Positions 4,836 through 63,480 of a stretch of 64,000 nucleotides of DNA are shown piece after piece. How positions within the stretch are numbered: the stretch's first letter is position 1; each line of letters opens with the position of its first letter. The notes under the pieces were generated by a model. That model ran no database searches. It saw only the letters and a program-made list of their open reading frames with translations, and was not told where the DNA came from. The position numbers were made by a program, and so were the translations under genes. The stretch comes from Candidatus Gorgyraea atricola (lineage in GTDB: Bacteria; Omnitrophota; Gorgyraeia; Gorgyraeales; Gorgyraeaceae): positions 311,666 to 375,665 of the forward strand of contig JAVCCW010000029.1 in NCBI GenBank assembly GCA_030765235.1, in the 5' to 3' direction.

Positions 4836-4841
4836 TTAGCT

Positions 4842-8904: not shown

Positions 8905-8914
8905 CGCGTTAAAA

Positions 8915-10697: not shown

Positions 10698-10715
10698 GTT
10701 GACAGTTTAGCCAGG

Positions 10716-10761: not shown

Positions 10762-10782
10762 TAAAGTTGAGGAAAAATAGGC

Positions 10783-18162: not shown

Positions 18163-18187
18163 GCCGAGGCTGGACCTCGGCTTTTTT
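18163..18187 (+). terminator. rho-independent terminator after asd (GCCGAGGCTGGACCTCGGC + TTTTTT)
   Basis: palindrome followed by T-run; same palindrome as 8915-8933. Confidence 0.7.
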
Positions 18188-18940: not shown

Positions 18941-18954
18941 AGCCCCTTACCCAA

Positions 18955-19012
18955 CCCTCTCCTCTGTAGGCCGGGTTTAAACCCGGCCTACAGAGGTGGT
19001 GTAGGGAGAGGG
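18955..19012. repeat. palindrome CCCTCTCCTCTGTAGGCCGGGTTTAAACCCGGCCTACAGAGG...GGGAGAGGG (REP-like, family of 10716-10761)
   Basis: shares CTCTGTAGGCCnGGTTTAAACCnGGCCTACAGAG core with the opp intergenic copy. Confidence 0.6.
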
Positions 19013-21192: not shown

Positions 21193-23750
21193 AGTATAGT
21201 TTAATCAAAAATTTTGATAACTCAGTAGAGCAGTTTAAGGATAAGGTTGCTATTTTATCTGGTTCAACGTCACTGACTTATGCAGAGCTTGGCGAGAAGA
21301 TAAAAAATACCGCATGTTACATATCTTCATTAGGCATTGAAAAAGGTGACAGGGTTGCGATCATTCTTGATAATGGGCCAGAGTTTGCGAGCGTATTTTT
21401 TGCATTGGCTTATATAGGCGCGGTCGCGGTTCCTCTTGATCCAAGGATGACAGAGAAGGATGTAGCAAACATCATGTCTGACTCTGGCGCAAAGATCCTT
21501 CTTACAATTGATAAAATAAAAGAACTAGACCCACCGCAAGTTTTTGAGAAAGCCATAGTAGAACCAGACGACCTTATAGTGCTGCTTTACACCTCTGGCA
21601 CCACAGACCTTCCAAAAGGTGTAATGCTCACGCATAAGAATCTGTGCTCGAATTTTAATTCTTTGAGGAAGATGAAGATCTTTACGCCAAAGGATACGAT
21701 ATTATCAATTCTCCCGCTTTACCATTCCTATTCACTCATGACTACGCTTATCGCGCCTCTTTTTTCAGGTTCAAAGATCGTGTATGTCTCTAGTGACTGG
21801 CCAGAGAAATTAGCTGACTATATAAAGGAAGCTGGAACAACCGTATTTATAGGTGTACCGCAGATTTATCACATGATGCATTCGCGCATGATTAAAAAGC
21901 TTAGCAGTATAGAAGGCCTTAAGGGGCTATTTGTAAAATCAGTAATAGCTCTTGGCCTTACAAAGGTACTTTTGCCCAAGGTCAAAAACGCCTTTGGAAA
22001 AAGGCTTCGCTTTTTTATAAGCGGCGGCGCAAAGCTGGATGCTACAGTGGCAAGGGATTTTTTCAAGCTTGGCTTTAAGATATTGGAAGGCTATGGCCTG
22101 ACTGAAACTTCTCCTGTTGCAAGTATAAATCCAGTGAAAAGGCCAAAGATAGGGTCGATTGGCACGCCTGTTCCTGATGTAAGGATGAGGATCTTGAATC
22201 CAGATTCCAGCGGCGTAGGCGAGATCGTGATCCAGGGCCCAAATGTCATGAAAGGCTACTATAAGAATGAGGAAAAGACAAAAGAGGTGCTTAAGAATAA
22301 CTGGTTTTATTCAGGCGACCTGGGATACAAGAATAGAGATGGATATTTTTATATTACAGGCAGGTCTAAAGAGGTGATAGTACTTAGCTCAGGCAAGAAT
22401 ATCTATCCTGAGGAGATTGAAAAGCATTATTCGAATACGTCCTACATAAAAGAAATGTGTGTTATAGGCGTATTAAAGGGAAAAGGCAATAGTAAGCTTG
22501 AATATCTGCATGCGATTGTTGTACCAGACCTTGAGTTTTTTAAAGAGCGCGGCGAAATGAATGTGAATCAAGTGTTAAAGGCCACATTTGATAATCTCTC
22601 TAAAGACATACCTGGCTATAGGCATATCATGGGATTTACTGTGACAAAAGAGGCTCTGTCGCGTACTGTGCTGGGCAAGCTCAAGCGATATGAGATCGAG
22701 AAAAAATTCCTTCCTGTTATTTTAGAAGAGACAGAGGAAGAAAAAGCTGTGAGTCCAGAAGATCAGGCTTTGCTTCAATCTGATACAGCGAAAAGGCTAA
22801 TAGCGTGCATAAAGGATGCGCTTGAGATAAAAGGGGATGCGCATCTTAATGACAGTATTGAGCTTGATCTGGGAGTGGATTCACTTACCAGGGTAGAGCT
22901 TGTTCTGGCTGTTGAGAAGTGTTTTAACATAGAGATATCGGATGAGATGATCGCGGCGGGGATATTTACGGTTAAGGATATTCTTACGAAAGTTGAAGAA
23001 CTCTTGGCAAGTGACAAGCGACAAGTGACAAGCGACAAGGGCGTGGAAAGAGCTATTCACTGGGCTGGGATTTTGAAGCAGGAATTGGCAAAGGATTTTC
23101 AGGACAAGATATCGTTGGAGTTGAGCTGGATAGATTATGTGTTTACTTTTATAATTAAAGGGTGCGTTGGTTTATTTTTCAGGATTTTTTATAGGCTCAA
23201 GGTAGAAGGCGCGGAAAAGATACCTAAGAAAGGGCCTTATGTTTTATGTGTGAATCATACTAGTTTCCTGGACGGGTTTATTGTACTATCTGGTGTGCCG
23301 CTTAGGACAGAACTTGAGTTATTCTTTATTGGATTCAGGAGATATTTTATAGTGCCTATCATAAGGAATCTTGTAAGGCGCTCAAGGATCATTCCTGTAG
23401 ATGCCACGCAGATCATAGAGGCAATGCAAGGCTCTGCGTATATCCTGAAGCACAATAAGGCCCTCTGTATATTCCCTGAGGGAGAGCGTTCTATTGACGG
23501 CGAGGTAAAGGAATTCAAGAAAGGTATTGGCATAATTGCAAAAGAACTAAATGCGCCACTTGTACCGGTTTATATCAATGGCGCTTTCAAAGCCTGGCCC
23601 AGGACACAGAAATTTCCAAAACTACACCCTATTAGCATAAAATTTGGCAGTCCTGTTGCACCTGATGTGTTAGCCAAGAAAGGCGACGCAAAAGACGAAC
23701 ACGAAGCAATTGCTGCAGGTATAAGAGGAGAGGTAATTAACCTTGGGTAA
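21186..23750 (+). CDS. tri-domain fusion: acyl-CoA/acyl-ACP synthetase (AMP-binding) + acyl carrier (PP-binding) domain + 1-acyl-sn-glycerol-3-phosphate acyltransferase (Aas-like)
   Basis: LLYTSGTTDLPKGV AMP motif; DSLTRVEL phosphopantetheine site; NHTSFLD (HX4D) and FPEGERS acyltransferase motifs; 854 aa. Confidence 0.75.
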   Translation: MVEYSLIKNFDNSVEQFKDKVAILSGSTSLTYAELGEKIKNTACYISSLGIEKGDRVAIILDNGPEFASVFFALAYIGAVAVPLDPRMTEKDVANIMSDSGAKILLTIDKIKELDPPQVFEKAIVEPDDLIVLLYTSGTTDLPKGVMLTHKNLCSNFNSLRKMKIFTPKDTILSILPLYHSYSLMTTLIAPLFSGSKIVYVSSDWPEKLADYIKEAGTTVFIGVPQIYHMMHSRMIKKLSSIEGLKGLFVKSVIALGLTKVLLPKVKNAFGKRLRFFISGGAKLDATVARDFFKLGFKILEGYGLTETSPVASINPVKRPKIGSIGTPVPDVRMRILNPDSSGVGEIVIQGPNVMKGYYKNEEKTKEVLKNNWFYSGDLGYKNRDGYFYITGRSKEVIVLSSGKNIYPEEIEKHYSNTSYIKEMCVIGVLKGKGNSKLEYLHAIVVPDLEFFKERGEMNVNQVLKATFDNLSKDIPGYRHIMGFTVTKEALSRTVLGKLKRYEIEKKFLPVILEETEEEKAVSPEDQALLQSDTAKRLIACIKDALEIKGDAHLNDSIELDLGVDSLTRVELVLAVEKCFNIEISDEMIAAGIFTVKDILTKVEELLASDKRQVTSDKGVERAIHWAGILKQELAKDFQDKISLELSWIDYVFTFIIKGCVGLFFRIFYRLKVEGAEKIPKKGPYVLCVNHTSFLDGFIVLSGVPLRTELELFFIGFRRYFIVPIIRNLVRRSRIIPVDATQIIEAMQGSAYILKHNKALCIFPEGERSIDGEVKEFKKGIGIIAKELNAPLVPVYINGAFKAWPRTQKFPKLHPISIKFGSPVAPDVLAKKGDAKDEHEAIAAGIRGEVINLG
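23010..23043 (+). repeat. tandem heptamer repeat (GTGACAA/GCGACAA)x4 + GGG in frame inside the Aas-like gene (encodes SDKRQVTSDKG)
   Basis: agtgacaagcgacaagtgacaagcgacaagggc. Confidence 0.65.
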
Positions 23751-23792
23751 CTTCGTAAGTTGTCCATTTGGACAACTTACGAAGTTACCCAA
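23743..23792. terminator. near-perfect 23-bp hairpin TTGGGTAACTTCGTAAGTTGTCC-loop-GGACAACTTACGAAGTTACCCAA overlapping the stop of the Aas-like gene
   Basis: seen directly; no T-run, so terminator versus structural element is unresolved. Confidence 0.5.
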
Positions 23793-23811
23793 GGTAGAAC
23801 AGGGGGATTGT

Positions 23812-24084
23812 ATGAGCAAAGTAACAGTTAAAAAGCCCACCAAGGAAGAGCTGCAGAAGTTAGGCGTGGACAAATGGCCTACATGGACGAGTGAGGTAAA
23901 GAAATTTGACTGGGAATATAGCGACAACGAGACATTTTATGTGCACGAAGGCAAGGTAAAGGTAATCATAACTGACGGCCAGGAAGTCGAATTCGGCAAA
24001 GGCGACCTCGTAACATTCCCCAAAGGCGTAAAATGCACATGGGACGTAAAAGAATCTATCCGTAAGGTCTATAATTTCGGATAA
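23812..24084 (+). CDS. cupin-domain small protein (DUF861-like)
   Basis: ~90 aa with FPKGVKCTWDVKESIRKVYNFG C-terminus typical of small cupins; start moved to ATG 23812 with GGGGGA Shine-Dalgarno; the upstream extension is the hairpin. Confidence 0.55.
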   Translation: MSKVTVKKPTKEELQKLGVDKWPTWTSEVKKFDWEYSDNETFYVHEGKVKVIITDGQEVEFGKGDLVTFPKGVKCTWDVKESIRKVYNFG

Positions 24085-24087
24085 GTT

Positions 24088-24191
24088 AACCCCATTCCAA
24101 ATTCTGAGTGACGCGTAATTTATTTTTTGGAACTACTTGCGTGCAATTCTTAAAGATTATTTGATGATCTTTAAGAATTTGGAACGGGGTT
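24088..24191. mobile_element. MITE-like element, ~104 bp, terminal inverted repeats AACCCCATTCCAAATTC / GAATTTGGAACGGGGTT
   Basis: TIRs seen directly; internal palindrome aattcttaaagat...atctttaagaatt; related TIRs at 47.5 and 47.85 kb. Confidence 0.5.
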
Positions 24192-24247
24192 CAATTCGTA
24201 CAGTGAGTTACGAAAATCAGAGATTTCCGTAACTCAGGTGCTCATTG

Positions 24248-24301
24248 AAATGCACCTGGGATGTAAAGCAACCCATCCGCAAAGTCTATAACTTTGGATA
24301 A
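24248..24301 (+). pseudogene. duplicated, diverged fragment of the 3' end of the cupin gene (KCTWDVKQPIRKVYNFG*)
   Basis: ~80% nt identity to 24031-24084 including the stop codon; lies just beyond the MITE-like element. Confidence 0.45.
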
Positions 24302-24346
24302 CTTTACATTTTAGGTCTTGCTTTAAATGTAAAGTTATGTTATAAT
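24296..24346 (+). promoter_or_regulatory. inverted repeat AACTTTACATTT-N13-AAATGTAAAGTT containing the 25-mer AGGTCTTGCTTTAAATGTAAAGTTA, followed by an extended -10 TGTTATAAT
   Basis: 25-mer repeated exactly at 44679-44703 (uvrA 5' UTR); half-site shared with the inverted repeat at 27220-27262. Confidence 0.4.
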
Positions 24347-33380: not shown

Positions 33381-34555
33381 AGAATAAAAAGGTGGTTTTA
33401 GCGTATTCAGGCGGGTTAGATACTTCGGTGGCTGTGAGATGGCTTACAGATAAGGGCTATGATGTTGTTGCCTACATGGCTGATGTGGGCCAGGGCGGGA
33501 ATTTTCAGAAGCTCAAGAAAAGGGCCTTGTCTACAGGTGCCTCAAAGGTCGTGATCGAGGATCTCAAAGACGAATTTGCAAAAGACTTTGCCTTTCAGTC
33601 GTTAAAGGCAGGCGCAGTCTATGAATCAAAGTATCTATTGGCAACCGCGCTTTCAAGGCCGATCATCGCAAAGGGCCTGGTGCAGACCGCGAAAAAGGAA
33701 AAGGCTAGTTTTATCGCGCATGGCTGTACAGGAAAAGGCAATGACCAGGTAAGGTTCGAGGTCACTGCAATGGCGCTTGCGCCTGAGCTCGGCATACTGG
33801 CGCCGCTCAGGGAATGGAATATGTATTCCAGAGACGAAGAAATAGAGTATGCAAAGGAAAAAGGCATAGACATAGATGTTACGAAAAAAAGCCCTTATAG
33901 TTTAGATCAGAATATTTGGGGAATAAGCATTGAGTGTGGCGTGCTAGAAGATCCATGGAATGAGCCGCCAGAAGACGCGTATAAAATGAGTATTGATCCA
34001 AAAATGGCGCCAAATAAATCAACATATGTAGAGATCGAGTTTAAAAATGGCATACCAGTAAAGATCAATGGAAAAAAATACGCGGCAGTGGATCTGGTAA
34101 TGAAGCTCAATAAGATCGGCGGCAAAAATGGCATAGGCAGGACTGATCTTGTTGAGAATAGACTCGTTGGCATTAAATCAAGGGAGATATATGAGGCGCC
34201 AGGGGCGTGGATCTTACATAAGGCGCATAAGGATTTAGAGGCGCTTGTGCTCGACAGGGAGCTGTTGCATTTTAAGGAAGTTATTTCCTTAAAATACGCG
34301 GAGCTTATATATTACGGCTTATGGTTTACACCTTTAAAAAAGGCGCTGGACGGATTTATAAACCAGACGCAGAAGAATGTAACAGGCAGTGTGAAGATGA
34401 AGCTGTTAAAGGGTCTTGCGAGTGTAGTAGGGAGAAAATCAGCGCACTCACTTTATAAAAAAGAAATGGCAACATATGACCCAGGCGATAAGTTCGACAG
34501 GACCATTGCGGAAGGATTTATTAAAGTGTGGGGAATGCCGTATAAAAAGGTGTAA
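33377..34555 (+). CDS. argG: argininosuccinate synthase
   Basis: VVLAYSGGLDTSV PP-loop. Confidence 0.9.
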   Translation: MKNKKVVLAYSGGLDTSVAVRWLTDKGYDVVAYMADVGQGGNFQKLKKRALSTGASKVVIEDLKDEFAKDFAFQSLKAGAVYESKYLLATALSRPIIAKGLVQTAKKEKASFIAHGCTGKGNDQVRFEVTAMALAPELGILAPLREWNMYSRDEEIEYAKEKGIDIDVTKKSPYSLDQNIWGISIECGVLEDPWNEPPEDAYKMSIDPKMAPNKSTYVEIEFKNGIPVKINGKKYAAVDLVMKLNKIGGKNGIGRTDLVENRLVGIKSREIYEAPGAWILHKAHKDLEALVLDRELLHFKEVISLKYAELIYYGLWFTPLKKALDGFINQTQKNVTGSVKMKLLKGLASVVGRKSAHSLYKKEMATYDPGDKFDRTIAEGFIKVWGMPYKKV

Positions 34556-34617
34556 GGTGTCAAGTGTCAGGTGTCAGGGAAGGTGCCTTGACACCTGACA
34601 CCTTTAACCTGACACTA
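34548..34617. repeat. heptamer-repeat hairpin (GGTGTCA-type units x4 + GGG, then reverse-complement arm) between argG and argH
   Basis: aaggtgtaaggtgtcaagtgtcaggtgtcagggaaggtgccttgacacctgacacctttaacctgacact. Confidence 0.6.
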
Positions 34618-37176: not shown

Positions 37177-37964
37177 ATAAGCTAAAATTTACGAAAATGG
37201 TTGGGGCTGGGAATGATTTTGTCTTGATTGATATTAGGGACAAGAGACAAGGAACAAGGGACAAGGGCTGGTCTAGGGTTGCGCAGGATTTATGTCAGAG
37301 GAAGACTGGGGTTGGTGCGGATGGGTTGCTTGTACTGGAGAAGTCTAAAAGAGCAGATTTTAGGATGCGCATATTCAATGCTGATGGCAGTGAAGCAGAG
37401 ATGTGTGGCAATGGCCTAAGGTGCGCTGCACTATACGTAGGCAAAAAAGGCAAGGCAAAGGTTGAGACAAAAGCAGGTCTTTATGAAGCGACCATTACAG
37501 GTAAAAATAGAGTTAAGATAAAGATGGAAGAACCCAAGGATTTGAAATCAGGTTTTCCGATCAGAGTAAATGATAGGCGCATAAGAGTGAGTTATGTTGA
37601 TACTGGTGTGCCGCATACAGTGGTTTTTGTGCAGGGCATTGAAAAGATAGACGTTGATTCTATTGGCAGAAGTATAAGATATCATAAAGAATTCAAGCCG
37701 CGTGGCACAAATGTTGATTTTGTCGAAATTATAGACGATAAAAATATAAAGATGCGGACGTATGAGCGCGGAGTAGAAGGGGAGACGCTTGCCTGTGGCA
37801 CGGGAGCAGTGGCGGCGGCGATTATAAGTAGTGTCAGGTGTCAGGTGTCAGGTGTCAATGTGCACACAAAAGGTGGGATTTTAAAGGTTTATATTGGTCA
37901 TAAAGGAGTATATTTAGAAGGAGAAGCGCGAAAGGTTTACCAGGGAGAGGTGAATTATGTTTGA
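37173..37964 (+). CDS. dapF: diaminopimelate epimerase
   Basis: FTKMVGAGNDFVLID, two catalytic Cys (MCGNGLRC, LACGTGAVAAA); carries two in-frame heptamer-repeat inserts. Confidence 0.85.
   Translation: MNKLKFTKMVGAGNDFVLIDIRDKRQGTRDKGWSRVAQDLCQRKTGVGADGLLVLEKSKRADFRMRIFNADGSEAEMCGNGLRCAALYVGKKGKAKVETKAGLYEATITGKNRVKIKMEEPKDLKSGFPIRVNDRRIRVSYVDTGVPHTVVFVQGIEKIDVDSIGRSIRYHKEFKPRGTNVDFVEIIDDKNIKMRTYERGVEGETLACGTGAVAAAIISSVRCQVSGVNVHTKGGILKVYIGHKGVYLEGEARKVYQGEVNYV
37247..37278 (+). repeat. in-frame heptamer repeat (GGGACAA/GAGACAA/GGAACAA)x4 + GGGC inside dapF (encodes RDKRQGTRDKG)
   Basis: gggacaagagacaaggaacaagggacaagggc. Confidence 0.65.
37830..37858 (+). repeat. in-frame heptamer repeat (GGTGTCA)x4 inside dapF (encodes VRCQVSGVN)
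   Basis: agtgtcaggtgtcaggtgtcaggtgtcaa. Confidence 0.65.
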
Positions 37965-39557: not shown

Positions 39558-40709
39558 ATGGGATTTGAATTAAGTGAGAGAGTAAAAAGGCTTCCGCCTT
39601 ATTTGTTTGTGGAGATCGATAAGGCGAAACGAAAAGCCAGGGCTGAAGGAAGAGACATAATAGATCTTGGGATCGGGGATCCTGATGAGGCCTCGCCAAA
39701 AGAGGTGGTGGATGTTTTCTGTAAAGCAGCAGGAGATCCAAAAAATCAACGCTATCCTTTGGATGAAGGGATACCAGCCCTAAGGAATAAAATAGCAGAG
39801 TGGTACAAGACCAGATTCAGCGTTACGCTGGATCCTGATAAAGAGGTGCTTGTTCTTATAGGCTCAAAAGAGGGAATAGCACATATGCCTTTGGCATTTA
39901 TTAATCCAGGAGATGTCTCGCTTGTGCCTGATCCTTGCTACCCTCCGTATAAAAGCGGGACTATTCTTGCCGGAGGAAAAGTGCATACAATGCCTCTTTT
40001 AGAGGAGAATAATTTTTTACCGGATTTAAAGCCTGTAAAAAAAGCAAAACTGCTCTATATAAATTATCCGAATAATCCTACGAGTGCTGTGTGTGACAAA
40101 AGATTTTTTGAAGACGCAGTGCTTTTCGCAAGAAAAAACAATGTTATTGTTGCGCATGACGCGGCATATTCTGAAATAGCATTTGATGGATATAGACCTG
40201 AGAGCTTCTTAAAAGTAGCTGGCGCAAAAGAACTGGGCGTTGAATTTCATTCTCTGTCCAAGACCTGTAATATGACTGGATGGCGCATTGGCTTTGTGTG
40301 CGGTAATGAGAAAATTATATCAGCCATAGCCAAAGTAAAATCCAACATCGACTCGGGCGCGTTCAATGCTATTCAAGTCGCTGGTATAACTGCTCTGGAT
40401 ATAGCAGAGAAACATACGCAGAGGATGAATAAGATCTATCAAGAGCGGCGTGACGTGCTTGTAGACGGCCTGAATAAAATTGGCTGGGCAACAAGAAAGC
40501 CAAAAGCAACTTTTTATGTCTGGACTCGGATCCCAAAGCAGTATAAATCATCTATTGAATTTGCCGAAATGGTACTTGAAAAAGCAAATATAGTTATTAC
40601 TCCAGGCATAGGCATGGGAGAAAGCGGCGAAGGATACGTGCGTATGGCGCTCACTGTTTCAAAGGAGCGGATGTTGGAGGCGGTGGAGAGGCTGAGGAAG
40701 ATACTTTAA
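39558..40709 (+). CDS. dapL: class-I PLP aminotransferase, probably LL-diaminopimelate aminotransferase
   Basis: RLPPYLFVEIDKAK N-terminus typical of DapL-family enzymes; follows lysA-dapF-dapA-dapB with no dapD/dapE in the window. Confidence 0.55.
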   Translation: MGFELSERVKRLPPYLFVEIDKAKRKARAEGRDIIDLGIGDPDEASPKEVVDVFCKAAGDPKNQRYPLDEGIPALRNKIAEWYKTRFSVTLDPDKEVLVLIGSKEGIAHMPLAFINPGDVSLVPDPCYPPYKSGTILAGGKVHTMPLLEENNFLPDLKPVKKAKLLYINYPNNPTSAVCDKRFFEDAVLFARKNNVIVAHDAAYSEIAFDGYRPESFLKVAGAKELGVEFHSLSKTCNMTGWRIGFVCGNEKIISAIAKVKSNIDSGAFNAIQVAGITALDIAEKHTQRMNKIYQERRDVLVDGLNKIGWATRKPKATFYVWTRIPKQYKSSIEFAEMVLEKANIVITPGIGMGESGEGYVRMALTVSKERMLEAVERLRKIL

Positions 40710-40710
40710 A

Positions 40711-40782
40711 GTGACAAGGGACAAGAGACAAGAGACAAGGGAGTTAGATACTCCTTGTCCCATGTCCCTTGTTGCTTGTCCC
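40711..40782. repeat. heptamer-repeat hairpin element (GTGACAA GGGACAA GAGACAA GAGACAA GGGA - loop - reverse-complement arm), upstream of folK
   Basis: gtgacaagggacaagagacaagagacaagggagttagatactccttgtcccatgtcccttgttgcttgtcc. Confidence 0.65.
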
Positions 40783-40789: not shown

Positions 40790-41233
40790 ATGCATTGCTA
40801 CATAGGCATTGGCTCAAATCTAGGCAATAGACGCAAGAACATTGATGCTGCGATAGAGAGATTGCAGCAGGCAAAAGAGATCGAGGTCAAAAAAATCTCG
40901 AGTGTATACGAGACAGAGCCAGTGGGCGGGCCAAAACAGTCTGATTATCTGAACGCTGCCATAGAAATCAACACAACATTTGGACCAAGAGAGCTTCTTG
41001 CAGCTTTACGCGAGATAGAAGATCATCTTGACAGAGAAAGATCAGTCAAGGATGGACCGCGTACCATTGATCTAGACATATTGACTTACGGTGATGAAAA
41101 AATAGATGAACCAGATCTAAAGATCCCACATCCAAGAATGAATGAACGAGAGTTTGTGCAGAAGCCTTTGAGGGATATCCAGGGAGGGACAAGAAGTGAC
41201 AAGGGACAAGAGACAAGGGACAAGGGGGTTTAG
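40790..41233 (+). CDS. folK: 2-amino-4-hydroxy-6-hydroxymethyldihydropteridine pyrophosphokinase (HPPK)
   Basis: YIGIGSNLGNRRKNI and TIDLDIL motifs; C-terminal 16 residues (GGTRSDKGQETRDKGV) are encoded by the downstream repeat element. Confidence 0.8.
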   Translation: MHCYIGIGSNLGNRRKNIDAAIERLQQAKEIEVKKISSVYETEPVGGPKQSDYLNAAIEINTTFGPRELLAALREIEDHLDRERSVKDGPRTIDLDILTYGDEKIDEPDLKIPHPRMNEREFVQKPLRDIQGGTRSDKGQETRDKGV

Positions 41234-41261
41234 ATGCTCCTTGTCCCATGTCCCTTGTTGC
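41183..41261. repeat. second copy of the GACAA-type heptamer hairpin, same orientation, downstream of and overlapping the 3' end of folK
   Basis: gggacaagaagtgacaagggacaagagacaagggacaagggggtttagatgctccttgtcccatgtcccttgttgc; loop TTAGAT as in the first copy. Confidence 0.65.
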
Positions 41262-41267
41262 TAAAGT

Positions 41268-44506: not shown

Positions 44507-44578
44507 CCCCTCGGGGGAGGGGACAGCGACCATTTTTTCTAGATAAAAAATGGTCGCTGTCCCCCTTTCCCCGAGGGG
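44507..44578. terminator. long imperfect palindrome CCCCTCGGGGGAGGGGACAGCGACCATTTTTT-ctaga-TAAAAAATGGTCGCTGTCCCCCTTTCCCCGAGGGG
   Basis: ~33-bp arms; likely bidirectional terminator between the small-protein genes and uvrA. Confidence 0.55.
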
Positions 44579-44678
44579 CATCTTTAATATGCGAGCAATA
44601 GTAATAATCCTGGCATTTGTACTCCTTTTTATATTCCAGATAAATACTGTAGTAAGCGTAGATTTATGGCGGATCCTA

Positions 44679-44703
44679 AGGTCTTGCTTTAAATGTAAAG
44701 TTA
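44679..44703 (+). promoter_or_regulatory. 25-mer AGGTCTTGCTTTAAATGTAAAGTTA, 7 nt upstream of uvrA start; identical copy at 24313-24337
   Basis: exact repeat; contains the near-palindrome CTTTAAATGTAAAG. Confidence 0.4.
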
Positions 44704-44709
44704 AGGGTT

Positions 44710-47496
44710 ATGGGCGAGAAGTGTATTCGGATAGTTGGGGCAAAGGAACATAATCTTAAGAATATTAGTCTGGATATTCCGCGGAACAGGCTTACTGTGA
44801 TTACTGGCTTGAGCGGTTCAGGTAAGTCCTCGCTTGCATTTGATACGATATATGCAGAAGGTCAGCGCAGGTATGTGGAGAGTCTTTCTGCTTACGCGCG
44901 TCAGTTTTTAGAGCAGCTCGAGAAGCCTGATGTAGAGCATATCGAGGGCATGTCTCCTGCGATCTCGATCGAGCAGCGCAGCGCTGGCAGCAATCCCCGC
45001 TCTACAGTAGGCACCACGACTGAGCTTTATGATTATCTGCGCCTGCTTTTCAGCCGCATTGGCACGCCTTACTGTTATAAATGTGGTAAAAAAATAATCC
45101 AGCAGAGTCAGGACGAGATAATAGACAGGATATTGAAATATCCTAAAGGTACGGCGCTTTTGATATTGGCGCCTGTAATAAGAGGCAGAAAAGGTGAATA
45201 TTATAATCTCTTTAAGGAATTAAAAAAGCAGGGGTTTGTCAGAGTGAGGGTAGATGGAGATATAAAATCCCTGGATGATAAAATAAAATTAGATAAGAAG
45301 AAAAAACATAATATAGAGGTCGTGATCGATAGGCTCGTGATGGATAAGGATATCAGAAACAGACTTTCTGATTCTGTAGAGATCGCATTAAAGGCTGGTA
45401 AGGGGCTTTTATTGGTCTCAAAGGTCGAGACTAAAGAAGAAATTTTATTCAGCGCGCTGTACTCCTGTCCTAATTGTGGTATAAGCTATGAGGAGATCGA
45501 ACCAAGGATATTTTCTTTTAATAGTCCTTATGGCGCGTGCAAGGCATGCGCTGGGCTTGGCACAAAGATGGAGATAGACGCGGATTTAGTAATACCTGAT
45601 AAGTCAAAGTCATTAAGAGAGGCAATAAAACCATGGCGCGTGGGCGGTAAAAGAATAGTCCTTCACTATAGAAGGTTATTAAGAAGAATGGGCGCTGAGT
45701 ATGGTTTTGATATAGACACGCCTTTTAACAAGATCCCCGGAGAAGTCAGGGATATTATCCTCCATGGTACAAAAGGAAGTAACTGGGGGAGATTCGAGGG
45801 TGTGATACCAAATCTCTTGAGGCGTCTCAAGGTGACAGACAGTGAATTCATGCGGCAGGAGATCAATAAGTATACCAATGAAAGCGAATGCCCGGACTGC
45901 AAAGGAAAACGGCTAAGACATGAGAGTCTCTCAATAAAGATAAATGAAAAATCCATAAGCGATATAACAAAACTTTCAATAAAAGACGCGAAAGAATTTT
46001 TCTTAGAATTAAGGCTTTCAACAAAACAAGAAAAGATAGCGCATCAGATCTTAAAAGAGATAAGGGAGCGCCTGGGGTTTATGGCCAATGTAGGCCTGGA
46101 GTACCTTACAGTAGACAGGCGTAGCTCTACGCTTTCAGGTGGAGAGGCGCAGAGGATAAGGCTTGCCACGCAGATAGGCGCAGGCCTTGTTGGTGTGGTC
46201 TATATCCTGGATGAACCAAGCATTGGACTACATCAGAAGGACAATTCGAAATTACTTGATACCTTAAAGGCGTTAAGGGATTTAGGAAATACTTTAATAG
46301 TTGTTGAGCATGATGAGGCTACGATAAGGAATGCCGATCATATTATTGATCTTGGGCCAGGCGCAGGAAGGCATGGGGGCCATATTGTAGCGCAGGGCAA
46401 GATCGAAGATATTTTAAACTCTAAAGAATCTCTTACAGGAAAGTATCTGCGCGGTAAATTAAAGATAAAGGCGCCAAAGAAAAGAAGAAAAGAGAATAAA
46501 GATAAGCAGCTTATCATACGAGGCGCAAGAGAGCATAATCTGAAAAACATAGATGTAAAGATTCCGCTTGGCCTTTTTGTCTGTGTCACAGGTGTTTCAG
46601 GTTCAGGTAAGAGTACGCTCGTTGACGATATACTTTACAGGGCCTTGGCAAAACATGTTTATGGATCCAGACAGAAACCTGGTTTGCATGAAAAGATAGA
46701 GGGCTTGAAGAATATAGACAAGGTCGTGGTTGTGGATCAGAGTCCTATCGGCAGAACTCCACGTTCTAATCCTGCTACGTACACAGGTGTTTTTTCTTTT
46801 ATCAGGAATCTTTATTCAAGGCTGCCAGAGTCTCGCATGAGAGGCTATGGTCCTGGTAGATTTAGTTTTAATGTAAAAGGCGGTCGCTGCGAGGCGTGCC
46901 AGGGCGATGGCATTAAGAAGATAGAGATGCATTTTTTGCCAGATGTCTATGTCAAGTGTGAGATCTGTGATGGCAGACGGTATAATCACGAGACACTGCA
47001 GGTTTTATATAAGGGAAAATCCATAGCAGATGTTTTAGAGATGACAGTAGAGGAGGCACTTGAACTTTTTAAGAATATCCCCCATGTCTACCAGAAGTTG
47101 AAAATACTCAATGAAGTCGGACTTGGCTACATTGAACTCGGCCAATTCGCAACTACGCTTTCAGGTGGCGAGGCGCAGCGCGTGAAACTCACAACAGAGC
47201 TTTCAAAGATCGGCACAGGCAAGACACTCTATATTCTTGACGAACCTACAACAGGCCTTCACTTTGCTGACATTGACAAGCTCCTAAATGTCCTCCATGC
47301 ATTAGTAGAAGCAAAGAACACCGTCCTTGTCATAGAACACAACTTAGACGTAATAAAATCCGCAGACCACATAATAGATCTAGGCCCAGGCGGCGGCGAC
47401 TCCGGCGGCCAAATAGTAGCCACTGGCCCCCCAGAAAAAATAGCCAAAACCCCATCCTCATACACAGGCGAATACTTAAAAACCCGTCTCTCGTAA
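44710..47496 (+). CDS. uvrA: excinuclease ABC subunit A
   Basis: two ABC ATPase modules ([23 protein letters not shown]), zinc-finger Cys motifs; 928 aa. Confidence 0.95.
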
Positions 47497-47500: not shown

Positions 47501-47863
47501 GTAACCCAAAAGCAGGCCTGCCTGCCCCGTACCAAATCGACCTGCCCCGTATCTTGCCGAAGGCAATGGTATGGGGAGATTTTGGTATGGGGGTCGCTCA
47601 GGGGAAAATTTCCCCATCCAGTATTGTGTGGCACGGGGTGTCCTGTGAGTGGGCCCCTCCGCCCGGTGTGGATCCTCCCACTCACAGGACACCCCGCGCC
47701 ACACTTATCCCATAAAAGGCTAAATTTTCAATTCGCCTGCCCCGTTCCAAATTCTTAAATATCAGCAAACAATCTATTAGAATTGTACGCGATTAGTTAC
47801 AAATAATAAATAGCTTATCTATCAGAATTTGGAACGGGGCTCCCAGGCCTCCTTTTGGGTTAC
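47501..47863. mobile_element. ~360-bp non-coding element with ~38-bp terminal inverted repeats (GTAACCCAAAAGCAGGCCTGCCTGCCCCGTACCAAAT ... GAATTTGGAACGGGGCTCCCAGGCCTCCTTTTGGGTTAC) and a GC-rich structured core
   Basis: TIRs seen directly; inner TIR portion (CCCCGTTCCAAATTC) matches the 24088-24191 element; core has a long hairpin gtggcacggggtgtcctgtgagtggg...cccactcacaggacaccccgcgccac. Confidence 0.5.
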
Positions 47864-47900
47864 ACTGTCATAGAAATATCTTCAAATATCAGCTCTTTTA

Positions 47901-47980
47901 TGGTATAATAAAAACAAATTGAGGAGAGGTTGTTTCTGCGAAGCCAAGCATGAAAATAGCTTGGCGAAGCAGAATTTTTT
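47901..47980 (+). promoter_or_regulatory. extended -10 promoter TGGTATAAT followed by a leader stem-loop + U-run (CTGCGAAGCCAAGC-atgaaaata-GCTTGGCGAAGCAG-AATTTTTT) ahead of the 47990 gene
   Basis: intrinsic-terminator-like structure in the 5' UTR; loop carries an ATG opening a 21-codon uORF with three Trp codons. Confidence 0.35.
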
Positions 47981-47989
47981 GGGTGGATT

Positions 47990-48757
47990 ATGAGGAAGAT
48001 TGGAAAAGGGTATAAACTCATTCTAATATCTATACTAATGGGGGGGGCGTTTTTATCGTCGACTCTTGCCTACCCAGTGTATGGCTTTAACCTAAGACCA
48101 GCACTTAAGTTTCAAGGTCAAAACTCTCTTGGTGAAAATTTACAAAAACTTCGTGATACAGCGGGAAAAATTGACGATGAAATTAGTAAAATTTTTATCT
48201 GCGCAGAAACGCTTTCCGAGGGCATTTCTGCGCCAAATTACTTTCATGATAAATGCATTAAAAACGAGATGTTAATCCTTGAGAAAGGTAAAAAACGTAT
48301 TTATTTAACGCGACAATTAGCTCATCTACTAGGACATTTGTTAAATGAAGTTTCTTTGTTAATTAATCATACAGTGACCAAAGATATAGCAATGCGTTAT
48401 ACAATCAGTATATGCAGAAAATTAGATGTTCTTGCAAGACTAAAAGAAAAAGATTTAATGTTAAGGTTGTTGCAAGGTAACGAAGTATTCAATATATTAG
48501 GTTATCCACCAAATAAAGGACGTATACCAAAAATAGAAAATCGTGATGCCGTTATTTCAAAAGCTCGTGAGTTAATAACTGTGTTTAAAAATGAAGTCAT
48601 AAAGGACGAGCTGTTTGAGCTAGTAAGACTCTGTGACAGAGATCCAAATTTAGTTTTGAAGAAATGGTACGGAAACGAAAATGAGGTAGCTTCAAATTCC
48701 AATATTTCTTATAAGGTAAACTTTGGTTCGGATGAAATTCATAGAACAGGATTGTGA
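47990..48757 (+). CDS. hypothetical secreted protein
   Basis: signal peptide MRKIGKGYKLILISILMGGAFLSSTLA; LRP tripeptide just after the predicted cleavage site, as in the 24355/25626 leaders; AT-rich gene. Confidence 0.5.
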   Translation: MRKIGKGYKLILISILMGGAFLSSTLAYPVYGFNLRPALKFQGQNSLGENLQKLRDTAGKIDDEISKIFICAETLSEGISAPNYFHDKCIKNEMLILEKGKKRIYLTRQLAHLLGHLLNEVSLLINHTVTKDIAMRYTISICRKLDVLARLKEKDLMLRLLQGNEVFNILGYPPNKGRIPKIENRDAVISKARELITVFKNEVIKDELFELVRLCDRDPNLVLKKWYGNENEVASNSNISYKVNFGSDEIHRTGL

Positions 48758-48795
48758 TTGGTAAGTTAGTATGGTGGAATCGAATGCCTGTCTTC

Positions 48796-48973
48796 TGCAC
48801 CACTCAGACCAAGGGGGCATGGGGCTTCTTTTACGCGAGCGGGCACGGTGCTAAAGTAGACAAAACAGTCACTGACTGTTTTGTCTACTTTAGTGAGCGA
48901 GCGTAAAAAAAGAGCAAAATTTTCACGCTGGGAAAATTTTGCGTCCCCAGGACCCCTTGGTCTGGGTGGTGCA
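48796..48973. ncRNA. ~180-nt nested palindromic element / candidate structured RNA (21-bp outer stem enclosing three hairpins, one identical to the 4842-4880 hairpin)
   Basis: outer TGCACCACTCAGACCAAGGGG / CCCCTTGGTCTGGGTGGTGCA; inner cttttacgc/gcgtaaaag, aaagtagacaaaacag/ctgttttgtctacttt, gcaaaattttc/gaaaattttgc. Confidence 0.4.
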
Positions 48974-49062
48974 AGAGGTGTTATGCGATATTTAGAGTAT
49001 TGCATGTCTACAGCTTTTTTCTCTTGCCTTAATTTCTGCTCAGTGGTATATTCATAGACAAG

Positions 49063-51531
49063 ATGAAGACTATAGCTGCTATATATATTATTATAGGTGC
49101 TATACTTGTTGCGCCTTTGACACCTTTATTGGCGCAGGCAGTTGATAGCAATGACTTTATCCTTGCCAAGAAATCCTTCCAGGATGGGTTCTATGAGATC
49201 GCTGCGCGGTCGTTCGAGAAATTCATATCAAATAATCCAAGCAATGAAGGTATCATAGAGGCGCGGCTTCTCTTGGGCGAGTCGCTTGTGCACCTTGAAC
49301 GATTTAATGACGCGATAAAAGAACTCGAAGTGGTTTTGGATTCCGGGGTATCGGGTCTCATCAAGGCCGAGGCGATTTACTGGAAGGCTGAGATATATTT
49401 CAGGACCCGGGACTTTGAAAAGGCAAGAGAGCTTTACGCTAAGCTACTAAATGATCACCCTTCATCCAAATACACGCCTCACGCAGAATATTCCACAGCC
49501 TGGTCCTTATATGAAGAGAAAAAATATGACCAGGCCCTTGATAAATTTTCCGCATTTCTGTCAAACTATCCTTCAGACAAACTAAAGGACGAGGTAGAGC
49601 TGAAGATAGCAGAGACACTTCACAAGCTCAAAGAGTATAAAAAGTCCAAAGAAAAACTTACAGCCTTTATTTCAAGGCAGGATGATCCTGAAAAATTATC
49701 AAGGGCGTATTTCTTGATGGCAGAAAACTCCTACTATTTAGGCCATTACAAAGACGCGCTCCAGTCTTACGAAAAATCCTTAAGCTCAAGCTCTGATCTG
49801 GACAGAGACGTACATGCGATATATGGAAGGGCGTGGAGCTACATCAAGATGCGCAAATACGAAGACGGTCTAATGGAATTTGAAAGATTGCGGGCCTTAA
49901 ATAGAGAAGTCCCTATCATGGATTCTGTCTTGTTTGGGGAAGCAGAATCATTCATAAAGATGCAGAGATTTGAAGAAGCCATAAAGGGCTTTAATGGTAT
50001 TATAGAGAATTTTCCCAGAAGCAGGTGGGCGGCTAATGCCTATCTTGGCAAGGGCGAGGCATTGCACAGGTTAGGACTGTACGAAGATGCCGTCAAGGTC
50101 TTGCAGCAGGGGCTAAAGCTCTTCCCTTCGAGTGAATATTCAGATGATATGCGACATAATCTGGCATGGACATATTTTAAAATGGATAGGTTTGATGATG
50201 TAGTTAGAGAGTTTACCAGGGTAATAAAGGAGTCGGACAGTGATTTCTACCGCATATCCGCGTATTGCAGATTGGGTGATGTCTACGTCCAGAGAGACGA
50301 ACCCAAAAAGGCCTTAGATGTGTATGACATGGTCATTAAAGAGGCCAATGTCAATCCTGACGCAGTATTTGGTTATGTGGATTACGCGCAGTATCAAATA
50401 GGACGCATCCTTTTTAAATTAGAAAGATTTGAAGGCGCTATCCTGACATTTCAGAGCCTATTAAAGAATTATCCTGATTCAAGCAACACAGAAGATGCTA
50501 TGTTTGGTCTGGCTGTAGCGCATTTTAAAAAAGGGGCTTTTGAATCTTCGATCCGCGAGATAGAAAATTTATTGGACAAGTTTAAAAGCAGTAAATACGA
50601 ACGAGAGGCCAATTTTTATCTGGCAAAAGCGCATTATAATATTGCGAACTACAGAGAGGCGTTACGTATATTTAAGGCTATATCATCGACAGGGACTGCT
50701 TCAGAATCTTCGACCAGGGCATTTTATGAGATGGGGTGGTGCTATTATAAGACAGGGGATACCCATAAGGCCTTGGCGCACTTTGAGAATTTTATTAATA
50801 TCTACCCTGAAGATGCCTTGTCTGAGGACGCGCGTTTCTGGCTCGCAGAGCAATATGCAAATAAAAAGGCAATTGAGAAGGCTGAAAAATACTTCCGTGA
50901 TGTGATCAAGAACTATCCTGGAGGGGTATTGGCTGACGATGCAGAATACAGGCTTGCTATCATGGCTTATGAGAATGGAGACAAAAATAAAAGCATCAGG
51001 ATGTTAAATCGATTAAAGGAAAATTATCCGGAAAGCGAACTCCTTCCTGTGGCTGAGCTTAAGGTAATCGAGATATCGATCAAGAAAAAGAATTTTGTAA
51101 GGGCAAAGGAGCTCCTGGAGAAATTCATGAAGGATTATAAAGAGACATCATATATAAAGGTTGCCTCCAGGTATTTCGCAGACATATTAAGGACAGAGGG
51201 AGATATGGAAAAGGCTATAGATTATTACAAGAAGGCCCTGGATAATAGACGCGGAGATTTTAACGCGAATATACAATATCTGGTAGCAGAGCTTTACGAG
51301 GGCTTAGGCGGTCTTGATGATGCAGTCGCAGAATATATGAAGGTCGGGTATATATATCCTGATTCTACACAGACCGTTGTTAAATCTCAGCTGGCCTGCG
51401 CTAAGATATTCGAGAAACAAAAAAAATGGCAAGACGCAGAGAAGCTTTATAAAAAGGTCTCTGTGATGGAGGTCAATGAGTCGATGTATGCGAGAGAGAG
51501 ATTGGAGTGGATAAGGAGAAATAAACGCTAA
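49063..51531 (+). CDS. tetratricopeptide-repeat protein with signal peptide (822 aa)
   Basis: more than a dozen TPR-like units; precedes exbB-exbD-tonB. Confidence 0.8.
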   Translation: MKTIAAIYIIIGAILVAPLTPLLAQAVDSNDFILAKKSFQDGFYEIAARSFEKFISNNPSNEGIIEARLLLGESLVHLERFNDAIKELEVVLDSGVSGLIKAEAIYWKAEIYFRTRDFEKARELYAKLLNDHPSSKYTPHAEYSTAWSLYEEKKYDQALDKFSAFLSNYPSDKLKDEVELKIAETLHKLKEYKKSKEKLTAFISRQDDPEKLSRAYFLMAENSYYLGHYKDALQSYEKSLSSSSDLDRDVHAIYGRAWSYIKMRKYEDGLMEFERLRALNREVPIMDSVLFGEAESFIKMQRFEEAIKGFNGIIENFPRSRWAANAYLGKGEALHRLGLYEDAVKVLQQGLKLFPSSEYSDDMRHNLAWTYFKMDRFDDVVREFTRVIKESDSDFYRISAYCRLGDVYVQRDEPKKALDVYDMVIKEANVNPDAVFGYVDYAQYQIGRILFKLERFEGAILTFQSLLKNYPDSSNTEDAMFGLAVAHFKKGAFESSIREIENLLDKFKSSKYEREANFYLAKAHYNIANYREALRIFKAISSTGTASESSTRAFYEMGWCYYKTGDTHKALAHFENFINIYPEDALSEDARFWLAEQYANKKAIEKAEKYFRDVIKNYPGGVLADDAEYRLAIMAYENGDKNKSIRMLNRLKENYPESELLPVAELKVIEISIKKKNFVRAKELLEKFMKDYKETSYIKVASRYFADILRTEGDMEKAIDYYKKALDNRRGDFNANIQYLVAELYEGLGGLDDAVAEYMKVGYIYPDSTQTVVKSQLACAKIFEKQKKWQDAEKLYKKVSVMEVNESMYARERLEWIRRNKR

Positions 51532-52589: not shown

Positions 52590-52716
52590 TAAATCCCAAA
52601 TCCCAATAATACCAATACTACCAAATAAATCCCAATCTCCAAATCCCAAACATGGTTTTGGATTTGGGATTTTGGATTTATTTGGGATTTGGTAGTATTG
52701 GGATTTGGGATTTTTT
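52590..52716. repeat. ~125-nt imperfect palindrome built of AATCCCA heptamer repeats (arms ~60 nt) ending in a T-run, between exbD and tonB
   Basis: aatcccaaatcccaataataccaatactaccaaataaatcccaatctccaaatcccaaa-catgg-ttttggatttgggattttggatttatttgggatttggtagtattgggatttgggatttttt. Confidence 0.65.
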
Positions 52717-61774: not shown

Positions 61775-62197
61775 ATGAGAAGTAAAGGTTTTACGCTGGT
61801 AGAAGTATTGATAGTCGTTATCATCATAGGTATCCTCGCTGCCATAGGCATACCGCAGTTTTCAGCTGCTATGGAAAAAGCAAAAGGCGGTGAGGCAAGG
61901 GCAGGCCTGGGGCATATACAGACCGCAGAAAAGATTTATTTTGCAGAAAACGACGCATATATTGGTGAACTTGGGGATACTAGTCTAGATTCATTACCGA
62001 TCAGTGCCTTAGATTTGACTTTGACTCAGAAATACTGGACCTTTACAATTGACGTACCAGGCGAGAATGAAGATGGCGGTGCAACTGGCTACACGGCAAC
62101 TGCGACAAGGAAAGGTGGATCCACAGCCTATCAAAATGACACTATTATGATGGACAACACCGGAGAGATAGGCGGAACTTGGGATTTTATTAATTAG
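61775..62197 (+). CDS. type IV pilin (prepilin-type N-terminal cleavage/methylation domain)
   Basis: MRSKGFTLVEVLIVVIIIGILAAIGIPQF class III signal. Confidence 0.8.
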   Translation: MRSKGFTLVEVLIVVIIIGILAAIGIPQFSAAMEKAKGGEARAGLGHIQTAEKIYFAENDAYIGELGDTSLDSLPISALDLTLTQKYWTFTIDVPGENEDGGATGYTATATRKGGSTAYQNDTIMMDNTGEIGGTWDFIN

Positions 62198-62261
62198 GGT
62201 ATGTTAAATAGGGCATGATCCGTTCTCAAACAACGGGGCATGTTATGCAAGGAGAAAGATT

Positions 62262-62675
62262 ATGACAAAAAGAGGTTTTACCCTTTTAGAGGTTCTTATT
62301 GTCGTTATCATCATAGGTATACTTGCTGCGATTGCCTTGCCACAGTATACAAGCACCCTTGAGAAGGCAAAATCAGCCGAAGCCTTAACTGGATTAGGGT
62401 CTCTTAGGAGCTCTATGGATCGATATTGGTATGATCAGATGGCTACATCTGCATATACGCAGTTAAGCGGCGCTGCCGGGGTAGATAGTTTAGATGTGGA
62501 GGTTGATGTTACAACGTGGACTTATACTATAGATGATGCCGGCGATACAGACGGCAGAGATTATGTTATACAGGCAACTAAAGGTGATTTTTGGATAGAT
62601 ATAGATGAAGACGGGAATACTGCCAAGTCTACGAATTTGGGAGGGGATGGTACTGGGTTAAGTACAGGCAGCTAA
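62262..62675 (+). CDS. type IV pilin paralog
   Basis: MTKRGFTLLEVLIVVIIIGILAAIALPQY. Confidence 0.8.
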   Translation: MTKRGFTLLEVLIVVIIIGILAAIALPQYTSTLEKAKSAEALTGLGSLRSSMDRYWYDQMATSAYTQLSGAAGVDSLDVEVDVTTWTYTIDDAGDTDGRDYVIQATKGDFWIDIDEDGNTAKSTNLGGDGTGLSTGS

Positions 62676-62693
62676 AAAAGAGCCAATTGATAT

Positions 62694-63101
62694 ATGAAGA
62701 TTAAGTGGCGCAGGATAGGTTTTACGCTTACGGAATTATTGATCGTAGTGATAATAATCGGAGTGCTGGCGACCCTGGCACTTCCGATGCTTGTCAAGAC
62801 ACTTGAAAAGGCAAAGGTCGGAGAGGCGATAAGCAATTTAAATCTCATAAGGACAGGACAAAAAGTCTATTATCTGGAATATGGGCAATTTTCCGATACT
62901 GTAGGCCGTTTGAATATAGAAAATCCAAATAGTGCAGCAACTAGCTATTTTGATTATACCGTTGAAGACTCGGATAGTTCTGATTTTACTGCAAGGGCTC
63001 AAAGAAAGAGTGACGCCCCATCTCCCTACAGCACGTATTATTATGAAATAGGTAAGAACGGTACAGTTAGTTCCGAACCAACCCCTGGCAACCCCTTTTA
63101 A
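62694..63101 (+). CDS. type IV pilin paralog
   Basis: GFTLTELLIVVIIIGVLATLALPMLV. Confidence 0.75.
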   Translation: MKIKWRRIGFTLTELLIVVIIIGVLATLALPMLVKTLEKAKVGEAISNLNLIRTGQKVYYLEYGQFSDTVGRLNIENPNSAATSYFDYTVEDSDSSDFTARAQRKSDAPSPYSTYYYEIGKNGTVSSEPTPGNPF

Positions 63102-63111
63102 GTAATCAATA

Positions 63112-63480
63112 ATGAACAATAAAGGTTTTACCCTTACAGAGATCATAGTAGCGGTGCTCATTATAGTCATCGCGTCAACTGGTCTATTGGGAGCGTTTTT
63201 TGGAGGGCAACAGATAATGGAGCGTTCATGGCACAGGATGCAGGCGTTGAATTTTGCAATAGAGGCACATGAGAAGTTAAGGGCCGGTTATAATTACAAT
63301 GATTCTGAAATGTCTGTGGGTGCCCATACAGAGGCAGACATAGGGACTGTTCTAAAAGGAGATCTCGCGGACTCAGATCTGAGCGCAGTTCTTACCTATG
63401 ATGTAATAGCAGAACCAGAACCAGCAAGCTATAAGGAAGTGGCTATAAATGTCAGCTGGGACGAGAGGAGTTTTGAATAA
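63112..63480 (+). CDS. prepilin-type minor pilin (PilV/GspI-like)
   Basis: MNNKGFTLTEIIVAVLIIVIASTGLLGAF. Confidence 0.65.
   Translation: MNNKGFTLTEIIVAVLIIVIASTGLLGAFFGGQQIMERSWHRMQALNFAIEAHEKLRAGYNYNDSEMSVGAHTEADIGTVLKGDLADSDLSAVLTYDVIAEPEPASYKEVAINVSWDERSFE

Follow-up and report, generated by a model that had tools for sequence, protein, structure and literature searches.

Repetitive extragenic palindromic (REP) sequences are imperfect palindromes of 20-40 bp, one end of which carries a GTAG or CGTC tag that stays unpaired (PMC3733652). Clusters of REP sequences, including the bacterial interspersed mosaic elements (BIMEs), form by insertion into or beside existing elements (PMC3116915). 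Bacterial miniature inverted-repeat transposable elements (MITEs) such as Correia/NEMIS, RUP and Nezha are non-coding units of 100-300 nt with long terminal inverted repeats (PMC3184786). The locus described here lies in a stretch of 64,000 nt (the window; all positions are given in its numbering) of contig JAVCCW010000029.1 of Candidatus Gorgyraea atricola, whose metagenome-assembled genome (MAG) came from Ace Lake, Antarctica (PMC8542988). The segment 48784-49008 of the window is likely to be a copy of a mosaic palindromic repeat of Candidatus Gorgyraea that is dispersed, non-coding and MITE-like. Its inverted ends, its size, its non-coding nature and its presence or absence among relatives are traits of MITEs, and its modular, combinatorial build is a trait of BIMEs.

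The element and its six copies

The gene order at the locus is uvrA (44710-47496), a composite of nested palindromes (composite P), an orphan gene (47990-48757), the element, a promoter-like site, a gene for a TPR protein of 822 aa, and exbB/tonB. An earlier note, made from the letters alone, had described a nested palindrome at 48796-48973 in an AT-rich spacer, and had offered a small RNA or a composite of nested REP-type insertions as its nature. All inverted repeats claimed in it were found, and the plus-strand RNA was predicted to fold with -113.1 kcal/mol, compared with -56.6 +/- 4.1 kcal/mol in 200 shuffles (z = -13.6). The spacer is not AT-rich: over its 305 bp the GC content is 0.45, as against 0.29-0.37 in the upstream gene.

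Alignment of the copies and comparison with relatives showed that the repeat unit, which spans ~48784 to ~49008, is wider than the outer stem (48796-48973). In the inverted-repeat search the outer arms (48796-48824 / 48945-48973) were 29 nt long and 90% complementary; the 21-bp stem of the earlier note is their core and includes one T.G pair. The palindrome is lengthened past these arms by CTTC/GAAG. A constant scaffold of ~135 nt consists of the outer stem (29 bp), a second stem (12 bp) and a side hairpin rich in AT, and a central slot, located in the loop of the second stem, holds a further hairpin. Six copies of the scaffold are known, one in the window and the others at the loci L007, L012, L026, L027 and L029; all are intergenic and located at unrelated sites. 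The parts of the window copy are listed below from left to right.

48784-48795: left terminal segment, ATGCCTGTCTTC (ATGCCTTC in other copies), which extends the palindrome past the outer stem and is kept in all five copies with a visible left end
48796-48824: left arm of the outer stem (inverted repeat I1), TGCACCACTCAGACCAAGGGGGCATGGGG, also present in L007, L012, L026 and L027
48825-48836: left arm of the second stem (inverted repeat I5), CTTCTTTTACGC, without variation among five aligned copies
48837-48850: unpaired conserved segment that forms the left edge of the slot, GAGCGGGCACGGTG, the same in all six copies; the slot starts directly after ...GGTG
48851-48893: slot occupant, here module B, a perfect hairpin of 43 nt (inverted repeat I2; arms of 21 + 21 nt at 48851-48871 / 48873-48893), CTAAAGTAGACAAAACAG...CTGTTTTGTCTACTTTAG
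48894-48900: conserved right edge of the slot, TGAGCGA here and CGAGCGA in other copies
48901-48912: right arm of the second stem (inverted repeat I5), GCGTAAAAAAAG
48914-48942: AT-rich hairpin (inverted repeat I4; arms 48914-48924 / 48932-48942), GCAAAATTTTC-ACGCTGG-GAAAATTTTGC
48945-48973: right arm of the outer stem (inverted repeat I1), CCCCAGGACCCCTTGGTCTGGGTGGTGCA, invariant in the five aligned full copies and different at two positions in L029
48974-49008: module G, appended on the right, ~35 nt, AGAGGTGTTATGCGATATTTAGAGTATTGCATG, found beside the scaffold in the window, L007, L012 and L026

Module G was absent from L027 and L029, and also from the syntenic spacers of the related contigs L034/L038 and L039. 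Three ORFs overlap the element, one of 79 aa on the minus strand and two of 50 and 58 aa on the plus strand, and all were rejected as coding sequences: the slot lengths of 43, 64 and 75 nt found among the copies disrupt every reading frame, and the tblastx similarity between copies merely follows nucleotide identity.

Scanning one genome per bacterial species with the outer arm yielded 26 loci. At three of these (L007, L012 and L026, on three contigs of the MAG CAZWYD01) the pattern was present on both strands, 157-187 nt apart. The remaining 23 loci, each with a single unpaired match and belonging to unrelated phyla, were ascribed to chance; the one inspected (L018) was coding sequence. A scan of metagenomes with a 19-mer of the scaffold added L027 and the metagenome contig L029, while the matches L028, L030 and L031 were set aside as chance. 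Searches of phages, plasmids and viral contigs gave no match to the element, and no copies beyond the six were detected when the window and 47 loci (386 kb) were searched for degenerate copies with an nhmmer profile. After removal of the central hairpin, the five full scaffolds were 96% identical over 145 columns, and their flanks could not be aligned. The family thus has the make-up of a dispersed, non-coding, multicopy repeat, with six loci in unalignable surroundings.

L027 belongs to the same genome as the window. The CvpA protein encoded there is identical to MDP8230918.1 of G. atricola, which is encoded on the same 404-kb contig as the UvrA of the window, MDP8230894.1, and the protein numbering suggests that this second copy lies a few kilobases past the right end of the window. 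CAZWYD01 must be a close relative, because the 1041-aa protein encoded next to the L007 copy shares a 90%-identity cluster with a G. atricola protein. The 83% identity of the DegT proteins, considered as a sign of a more distant species, was dropped, as DegT is encoded in a variable lipopolysaccharide locus and the GspK-like protein shares a 90%-identity cluster with its G. atricola counterpart. Several short-read contigs end within the repeat cluster or at most ~130 nt from it (L007, L026 and L029 at the scaffold, L047 inside the adjoining P composite), as is expected of a multicopy repeat; the contigs found to encode CvpA were only 1-2.4 kb long. The genes beside the other five copies are of housekeeping types (PolX, radical SAM/GT9, GspK-like, the cvpA neighbourhood), with several others that have no Pfam match. 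There was no transposase among the annotated genes flanking the copies.

A fixed slot, a nested insertion and turnover among relatives

The central slot has the same position in all six copies. Its layout is ...CTTCTTTTACGCGAGCGGGCACGGTG, then the occupant, then YGAGCGAGYGTAAAAAAAGAGCAAAATTTTCACGCTGGGAAAATTTTGCGT..., and its edges read ...GGCACGGTG on the left and YGAGCGAG... on the right. The six slots contain four types of occupant, of 43, 43, 64 and 75 nt. Module B (43 nt) fills the slot in the window, L027 and L029. L012 has another 43-nt hairpin, distinct from module B, and in L007 the stem base of the L012 hairpin carries a further palindrome at its tip, which gives a total of 75 nt. The occupant in L026 is an inverted-repeat element of 64 nt. 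Three of the four types were also found free-standing (at 4839-4880 in the window; at 24299-24337 in the window and 3575-3613 in L026; and at 1632-1733 in L029). Of the fourth type, that of L007, only a core of ~20 nt recurs, at 8911-8929 and 18167-18187 of the window.

The inner hairpin had been recognised by the earlier note as the one standing next to a GH57 gene. This was correct: it is 95% identical over 42 nt to 4839-4880, and the gene at 2862-4835 was confirmed as GH57. The gap between the 16-nt arms had been counted as 8 nt and is in fact 7 nt. The 16-nt arm of module B occurs four times in the window, where 0.1 occurrences would be expected by chance. Judged from its position, the free-standing copy at 4839-4880 is a plausible candidate terminator. 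Four features outside the element are referred to below.

4839-4880: free-standing module B (family D11), 4 nt past the GH57 stop codon
47500-47864: composite P, nested palindromes of 364 nt downstream of uvrA, fold z = -14.5
47738-47841: module D, an inverted-repeat element of ~105 nt nested in composite P, GCCCCGTTCCAAATTC...GAATTTGGAACGGGGC; the family also includes 24088-24192 and the insert in L029
49024-49052, plus strand: promoter-like site (TTGCCT-17-TATATT, preceded by a TG) just outside the repeat, belonging to the downstream TPR gene

Module D provided a case of nesting within the scaffold itself. In L029 a module D of ~105 nt sits inside the 7-nt loop of the AT-rich GCAAAATTTTC hairpin, which is uninterrupted in the five other copies. 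A clean empty site for the module D of composite P (47738-47841) was found in L039, where identical flanks are joined directly, AAAGGCTAAATTTTCAATTCGC being followed immediately by CCCAGGCCTCCTTTTGGGTT. Both target sites of module D read TTCRCGC; a target duplication of 2-3 bp (CG/CGC) is possible but ambiguous. A further module D was observed at the end of a gene for a EutQ-like cupin (23812-24084): in the segment 24030-24300 the 3' end of the gene is followed by module D at 24088-24192 and then, at ~24247-24300, by a diverged version of the last 17 codons and the stop codon. The insertion seems to have brought, or left behind, a replacement 3' end. Composite P keeps company with the scaffold. 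A P composite or a P arm stands directly beside the scaffold in L007, L012, L026 and L027, and the scaffold of L029 lies inside one. In the window the orphan gene lies between the two, which are separated by 920 nt.

Three sites could be compared with close relatives, and the scaffold was missing at all three. L039 comes from such a relative: its TPR protein is 87% identical to that of the window, and its UvrA shares a 90%-identity cluster with the window's. It keeps composite P, with the same outer arms and a different interior, and has no scaffold; the spacer before the TPR gene is 82 nt, and homology to the window resumes at ~49015. There was likewise no scaffold in L040-L043 after the GspK-like gene, a site that is occupied in L007, homology stopping at the stop codon. 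In L034 and L038 the scaffold was absent upstream of the GT9 gene, where L012 has it, and homology resumes directly past module G, at the GT9 promoter. Other nested palindromes of this related Omnitrophota population were seen at L034 2229-2613 and L038 735-1119, for example GGAGTTTCCCCAGTTTTT...AAAAACTGGGGAAACTCC around GCGCAAATTTGGG...CCCAATTTGCGC; their architecture is as at L012, and their sequences are unrelated. L045, which encodes an identical CvpA, contains composite P and lacks the scaffold. Its homology with L044 begins exactly at the end of the scaffold, that of the left terminal segment. The outer stem, whose conservation in relatives the earlier note had proposed as a check, is therefore not conserved in syntenic spacers, as these lack the element.

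The surroundings of the element also turn over. A homologue search with the upstream 255-aa gene product matched only itself (in the G. atricola MAG, on the 404-kb contig), for which reason the gene is called an orphan; it has no Pfam match. In the nearest sequenced relatives identified through the TPR gene (53% and 50% identity) uvrA and the TPR gene lie just 123 and 48 bp apart, so that the segment from 47497 to ~49014 is lineage-specific. Positions 47865-49014 of the window and 7108-8025 of L039 contain orphan genes of similar size (255 and 251 aa) that are completely unrelated (BLASTP E = 20) and match no Pfam family. This region next to uvrA looks like a hypervariable gene slot, in which more distant relatives hold nothing.

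Part of what the earlier note had offered, a composite of nested insertions, was borne out by the six-locus family, by the swapped central hairpins that recur free-standing, and by the extra element in the loop of one hairpin. DNA-level processes most likely account for the origin and the spread of the composite. Small elements (inverted repeats or hairpins) would insert into or beside existing palindromes and so give rise to Russian-doll structures, and the whole composite would be copied to new intergenic sites just past stop codons, with the transposase or recombinase acting in trans.

Several points weigh against this explanation. Neither a transposase, nor a REP-associated tyrosine transposase (RAYT), nor an autonomous parent with the same ends was seen among the window ORFs selected for screening or among the genes next to the other copies. 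With only six copies known, the family may be small. Because the copies are nearly identical, covariation has little power against selection on RNA structure. A clean empty site for the scaffold alone was not found, the adjoining sequence also differing in every syntenic comparison, and these differences in neighbouring DNA blur the ends of the scaffold and any target-site duplication. Finally, none of the six copies had an empty slot, which is unexpected if the occupants inserted independently. Either the slot is an extremely hot target, or its occupants are swapped by recombination or template switching; that all slots are filled could instead mean that the scaffold needs an apical hairpin.

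Terminator, small RNA and other readings

The composite could be a selected terminator or insulator. Its stacked hairpins would be kept because they block read-through from the orphan gene into the TPR/ExbB operon and in the reverse direction, and the genome would draw its terminators from the repeat family. We consider this unlikely. It agrees with the location of all six copies past a stop codon, with co-directional genes and before the next promoter, with the lone module B 4 nt past the GH57 stop codon, and with the core of the L007 occupant, which matches sequences consisting of a hairpin and a T-run at 8911-8929 and 18167-18187. However, no plus-strand hairpin of the element has a U-tract after it: the terminator scan found no site on the plus (transcribed) strand, its sole match being the AT-rich hairpin and the T7 on the minus strand. 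Moreover, the corresponding sites of close relatives have spacers of 48-152 nt and no such element, and a composite of ~225 nt far exceeds what termination needs. A terminator function is compatible with a mobile mosaic repeat. By analogy with REP/BIME sequences (PMC3733652, PMC2817692), a role as a barrier to read-through or as a stabiliser of mRNA 3' ends is plausible, and any effect of the element in the cell is probably incidental and of one of these kinds.

The second half of the earlier note's suggestion, a small RNA, was not supported. The copies would be paralogous genes of a multicopy structured RNA, either a plus-strand fold of ~180 nt or an antisense RNA of ~85 nt from the minus strand. 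In the latter, speculative version the transcript would start at module G (TGnAATACT, extended -10-like, 49006-48998) and end at the AT-rich hairpin and T7 (48942-48905). The stability of the fold speaks for such an RNA, as do the terminator-like arrangement on the minus strand, where a run of seven T follows the AT-rich hairpin at 48914-48942, and the retention of module G in four of the six copies; L027 and L029, which have no module G, speak against the antisense version. The promoter scan detected no promoter-like site within the element. The fold is not specific to one strand: the minus strand folds with -105 kcal/mol (z = -13.7), a symmetry that follows from a DNA palindrome. Similarly, the scaffold has no preferred direction relative to the neighbouring genes, being forward in three copies (window, L012, L026) and reversed in the other three (L007, L027/L044, L029).

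The Rfam scan proposed by the earlier note was negative. There were no hits in the whole window at gathering thresholds, and the relaxed search (E <= 10, 48650-49150) gave sub-threshold noise, the best scores of 12-28 bits (thresholds 37-100) belonging to models of miRNAs, snoRNAs and unrelated small RNAs. In the five-copy alignment 93.9% of the cells pair and 43 of the 56 base pairs are invariant; none of the 56 showed compensatory changes, a test with little power for copies so alike (96% identity). In the outer stem, changes on one side only are accommodated as plus-strand G.U pairs, as would suit an RNA, but changes of the A.C type are about as frequent as those of the G.U type, and there is therefore no strand preference. 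It also argues against an RNA gene that the central hairpin is wholly exchanged between copies and that the element is missing from the syntenic sites of close relatives. The reading as a dedicated small-RNA gene is thus not supported, and we regard a multicopy structured RNA as decidedly unlikely.

Because every one of the six slots is filled, at exactly the same nucleotide but with occupants of four unrelated kinds, a bolder proposal can be made, namely that the scaffold is a purpose-built carrier whose apical slot captures or exchanges terminator-type hairpins by a structure-directed mechanism, perhaps together with the ~85-nt antisense transcript from module G. The exchange may proceed by template switching or by a hairpin-specific recombinase. 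This proposal appears improbable to us; if true, the carrier scaffold would represent a form of modular hairpin mobilisation not described for the REP, BIME or MITE families.

An attC-like recombination site at the 3' end of an orphan-gene cassette is hardly credible. One could cite for it the imperfect palindrome with a variable centre, as in attC sites, and the segment 47865-49014, which comprises the promoter, the orphan gene and the element and whose place in L039 is taken by an unrelated orphan gene of 251 aa. Against it, the element is missing from the L039 cassette, ordinary housekeeping genes and not cassette arrays precede the other five copies, no GTTRRRY core was seen on reading the element ends, and no integrase was found among the screened window ORFs and the genes flanking the copies. 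A retron was rejected on context and sequence.

Known systems, neighbouring repeats and implications

The mobile mosaic repeat that we favour resembles the REP/BIME sequences and REPINs (REP doublets forming hairpins) of Proteobacteria (PMC3116915, PMC2817692, PMC3333891) in being extragenic, palindromic, dispersed, mosaic and mostly located downstream of genes. It also shares with them conserved inverted arms around a less conserved centre whose main property is hairpin formation. Here the centre is a discrete slot for unrelated, independently repeated hairpins and not a drifting spacer. There are further differences from REP sequences. The conserved unit is ~135-225 nt long instead of 20-40 nt, and it has no unpaired GTAG or CGTC tag: the GTAG of module B is paired with CTAC in the stem, and no tagged unit recurs. 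No RAYT gene was seen among the ORFs screened, and six copies are known, in contrast to the hundreds of REP sequences, with coverage here of 64 kb plus genome fragments. RAYT-associated repeats number more than 100 per genome and stand on both sides of a RAYT gene.

The likeness to bacterial MITEs (PMC3184786) consists in the non-coding sequence, a length of 100-300 nt, long terminal inverted repeats (here the 29-nt arms with 90% complementarity), intergenic dispersal, presence or absence in close relatives, and the ability to nest. The ~105-nt module D acts like a classical MITE in that its filled and its empty sites are clean. For the scaffold, unlike for MITEs, no parent insertion sequence (IS) with matching ends is known, and the mobile unit is not sharply bounded, since the flanks past the outer stem vary between copies (module G, P arms). 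IS elements that target REP hairpins (IS1397, ISKpn1, ISPpu9/IS110 family; PMC1525189, PMC12288879) also use an existing palindrome as their preferred target, and module D in the side-hairpin loop, like the slot, is an instance of this here. The inserting elements here differ from them in being non-coding palindromes of 43-105 nt without a transposase.

Another parallel comes from a different phylum, with sequences unrelated to those found here. In Nostoc punctiforme, the small dispersed repeats (SDR) described by Elhai et al. 2008 are reportedly very small mobile repeats that occur in conserved hairpin contexts and nested in other repeats. The same genome is also reported to carry heptamer tandem repeats, and the window likewise has hairpins made of heptamer repeats. 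These are tandem heptamers of the types (GGGACAA)n, (TGTCAGG)n and (CCAAATC)n, present in numerous spacers and at the ends of genes, where inverted pairs of them often make hairpins; they are similar to the short tandemly repeated repetitive (STRR) sequences of cyanobacteria.

15031-15052, 23005-23045, 34550-34617, 37235-37271, 37829-37858, 40709-40779, 41194-41262 and 52591-52713: heptamer repeat sites

Other palindromes in the window and its relatives were noted. A hairpin C (TAACTTTACATTT.AGGTCTTGC.TTAAATGTAAAGTTA) stands directly upstream of genes at 24299-24346 of the window and at 3575-3617 of L026, and a half copy of it (44677-44705) is located 5 nt ahead of the uvrA start codon. Its loop and right arm, together with the bases downstream, read TTGCTT-17-TATAAT at 24318-24346, and hairpin C may for this reason bring a promoter. 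Further perfect or near-perfect palindromes are common to different spacers (10707-10763 and 18947-19003; 8911-8933 and 18163-18185; 23740-23795; 44519-44564). They fill short gaps between genes in an array that lies entirely on the plus strand, and most of the intergenic spacers fold unusually strongly. At 4736-4768 of L039 an 18-nt palindromic match to the core of the GGCTGGACCTCGGC-type hairpin falls within the uvrA coding region and is either an intragenic repeat or a chance match. Four small type IV pilin-like genes are arranged in tandem at 61775-63480. Three of their products match the Pfam family ComP_DUS, one above the threshold (31.7 bits) and two below. As ComP_DUS is the receptor of DNA uptake sequences, the matches raise the question of whether some of the abundant repeats are uptake sequences.

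Literature searches on the genus Gorgyraea and on MITEs in Omnitrophota yielded no account of palindromic repeats in the phylum. The element belongs to an ordinary kind of bacterial repeat DNA, here in a barely studied phylum, and its novelty is modest. Omnitrophota are uncultured and their repeat content is hardly described, so the finding has practical consequences: multi-stem folds in their genomes need a check of copy number before they are labelled as small-RNA genes, and mosaic repeats of this kind fragment short-read assemblies. The same repeats flag hot spots of intergenic turnover, one of them being the slot adjacent to uvrA, whose orphan gene differs between sister genomes. The slot within the scaffold, constant in position and variable in occupant, poses a small puzzle of how tiny palindromes move.

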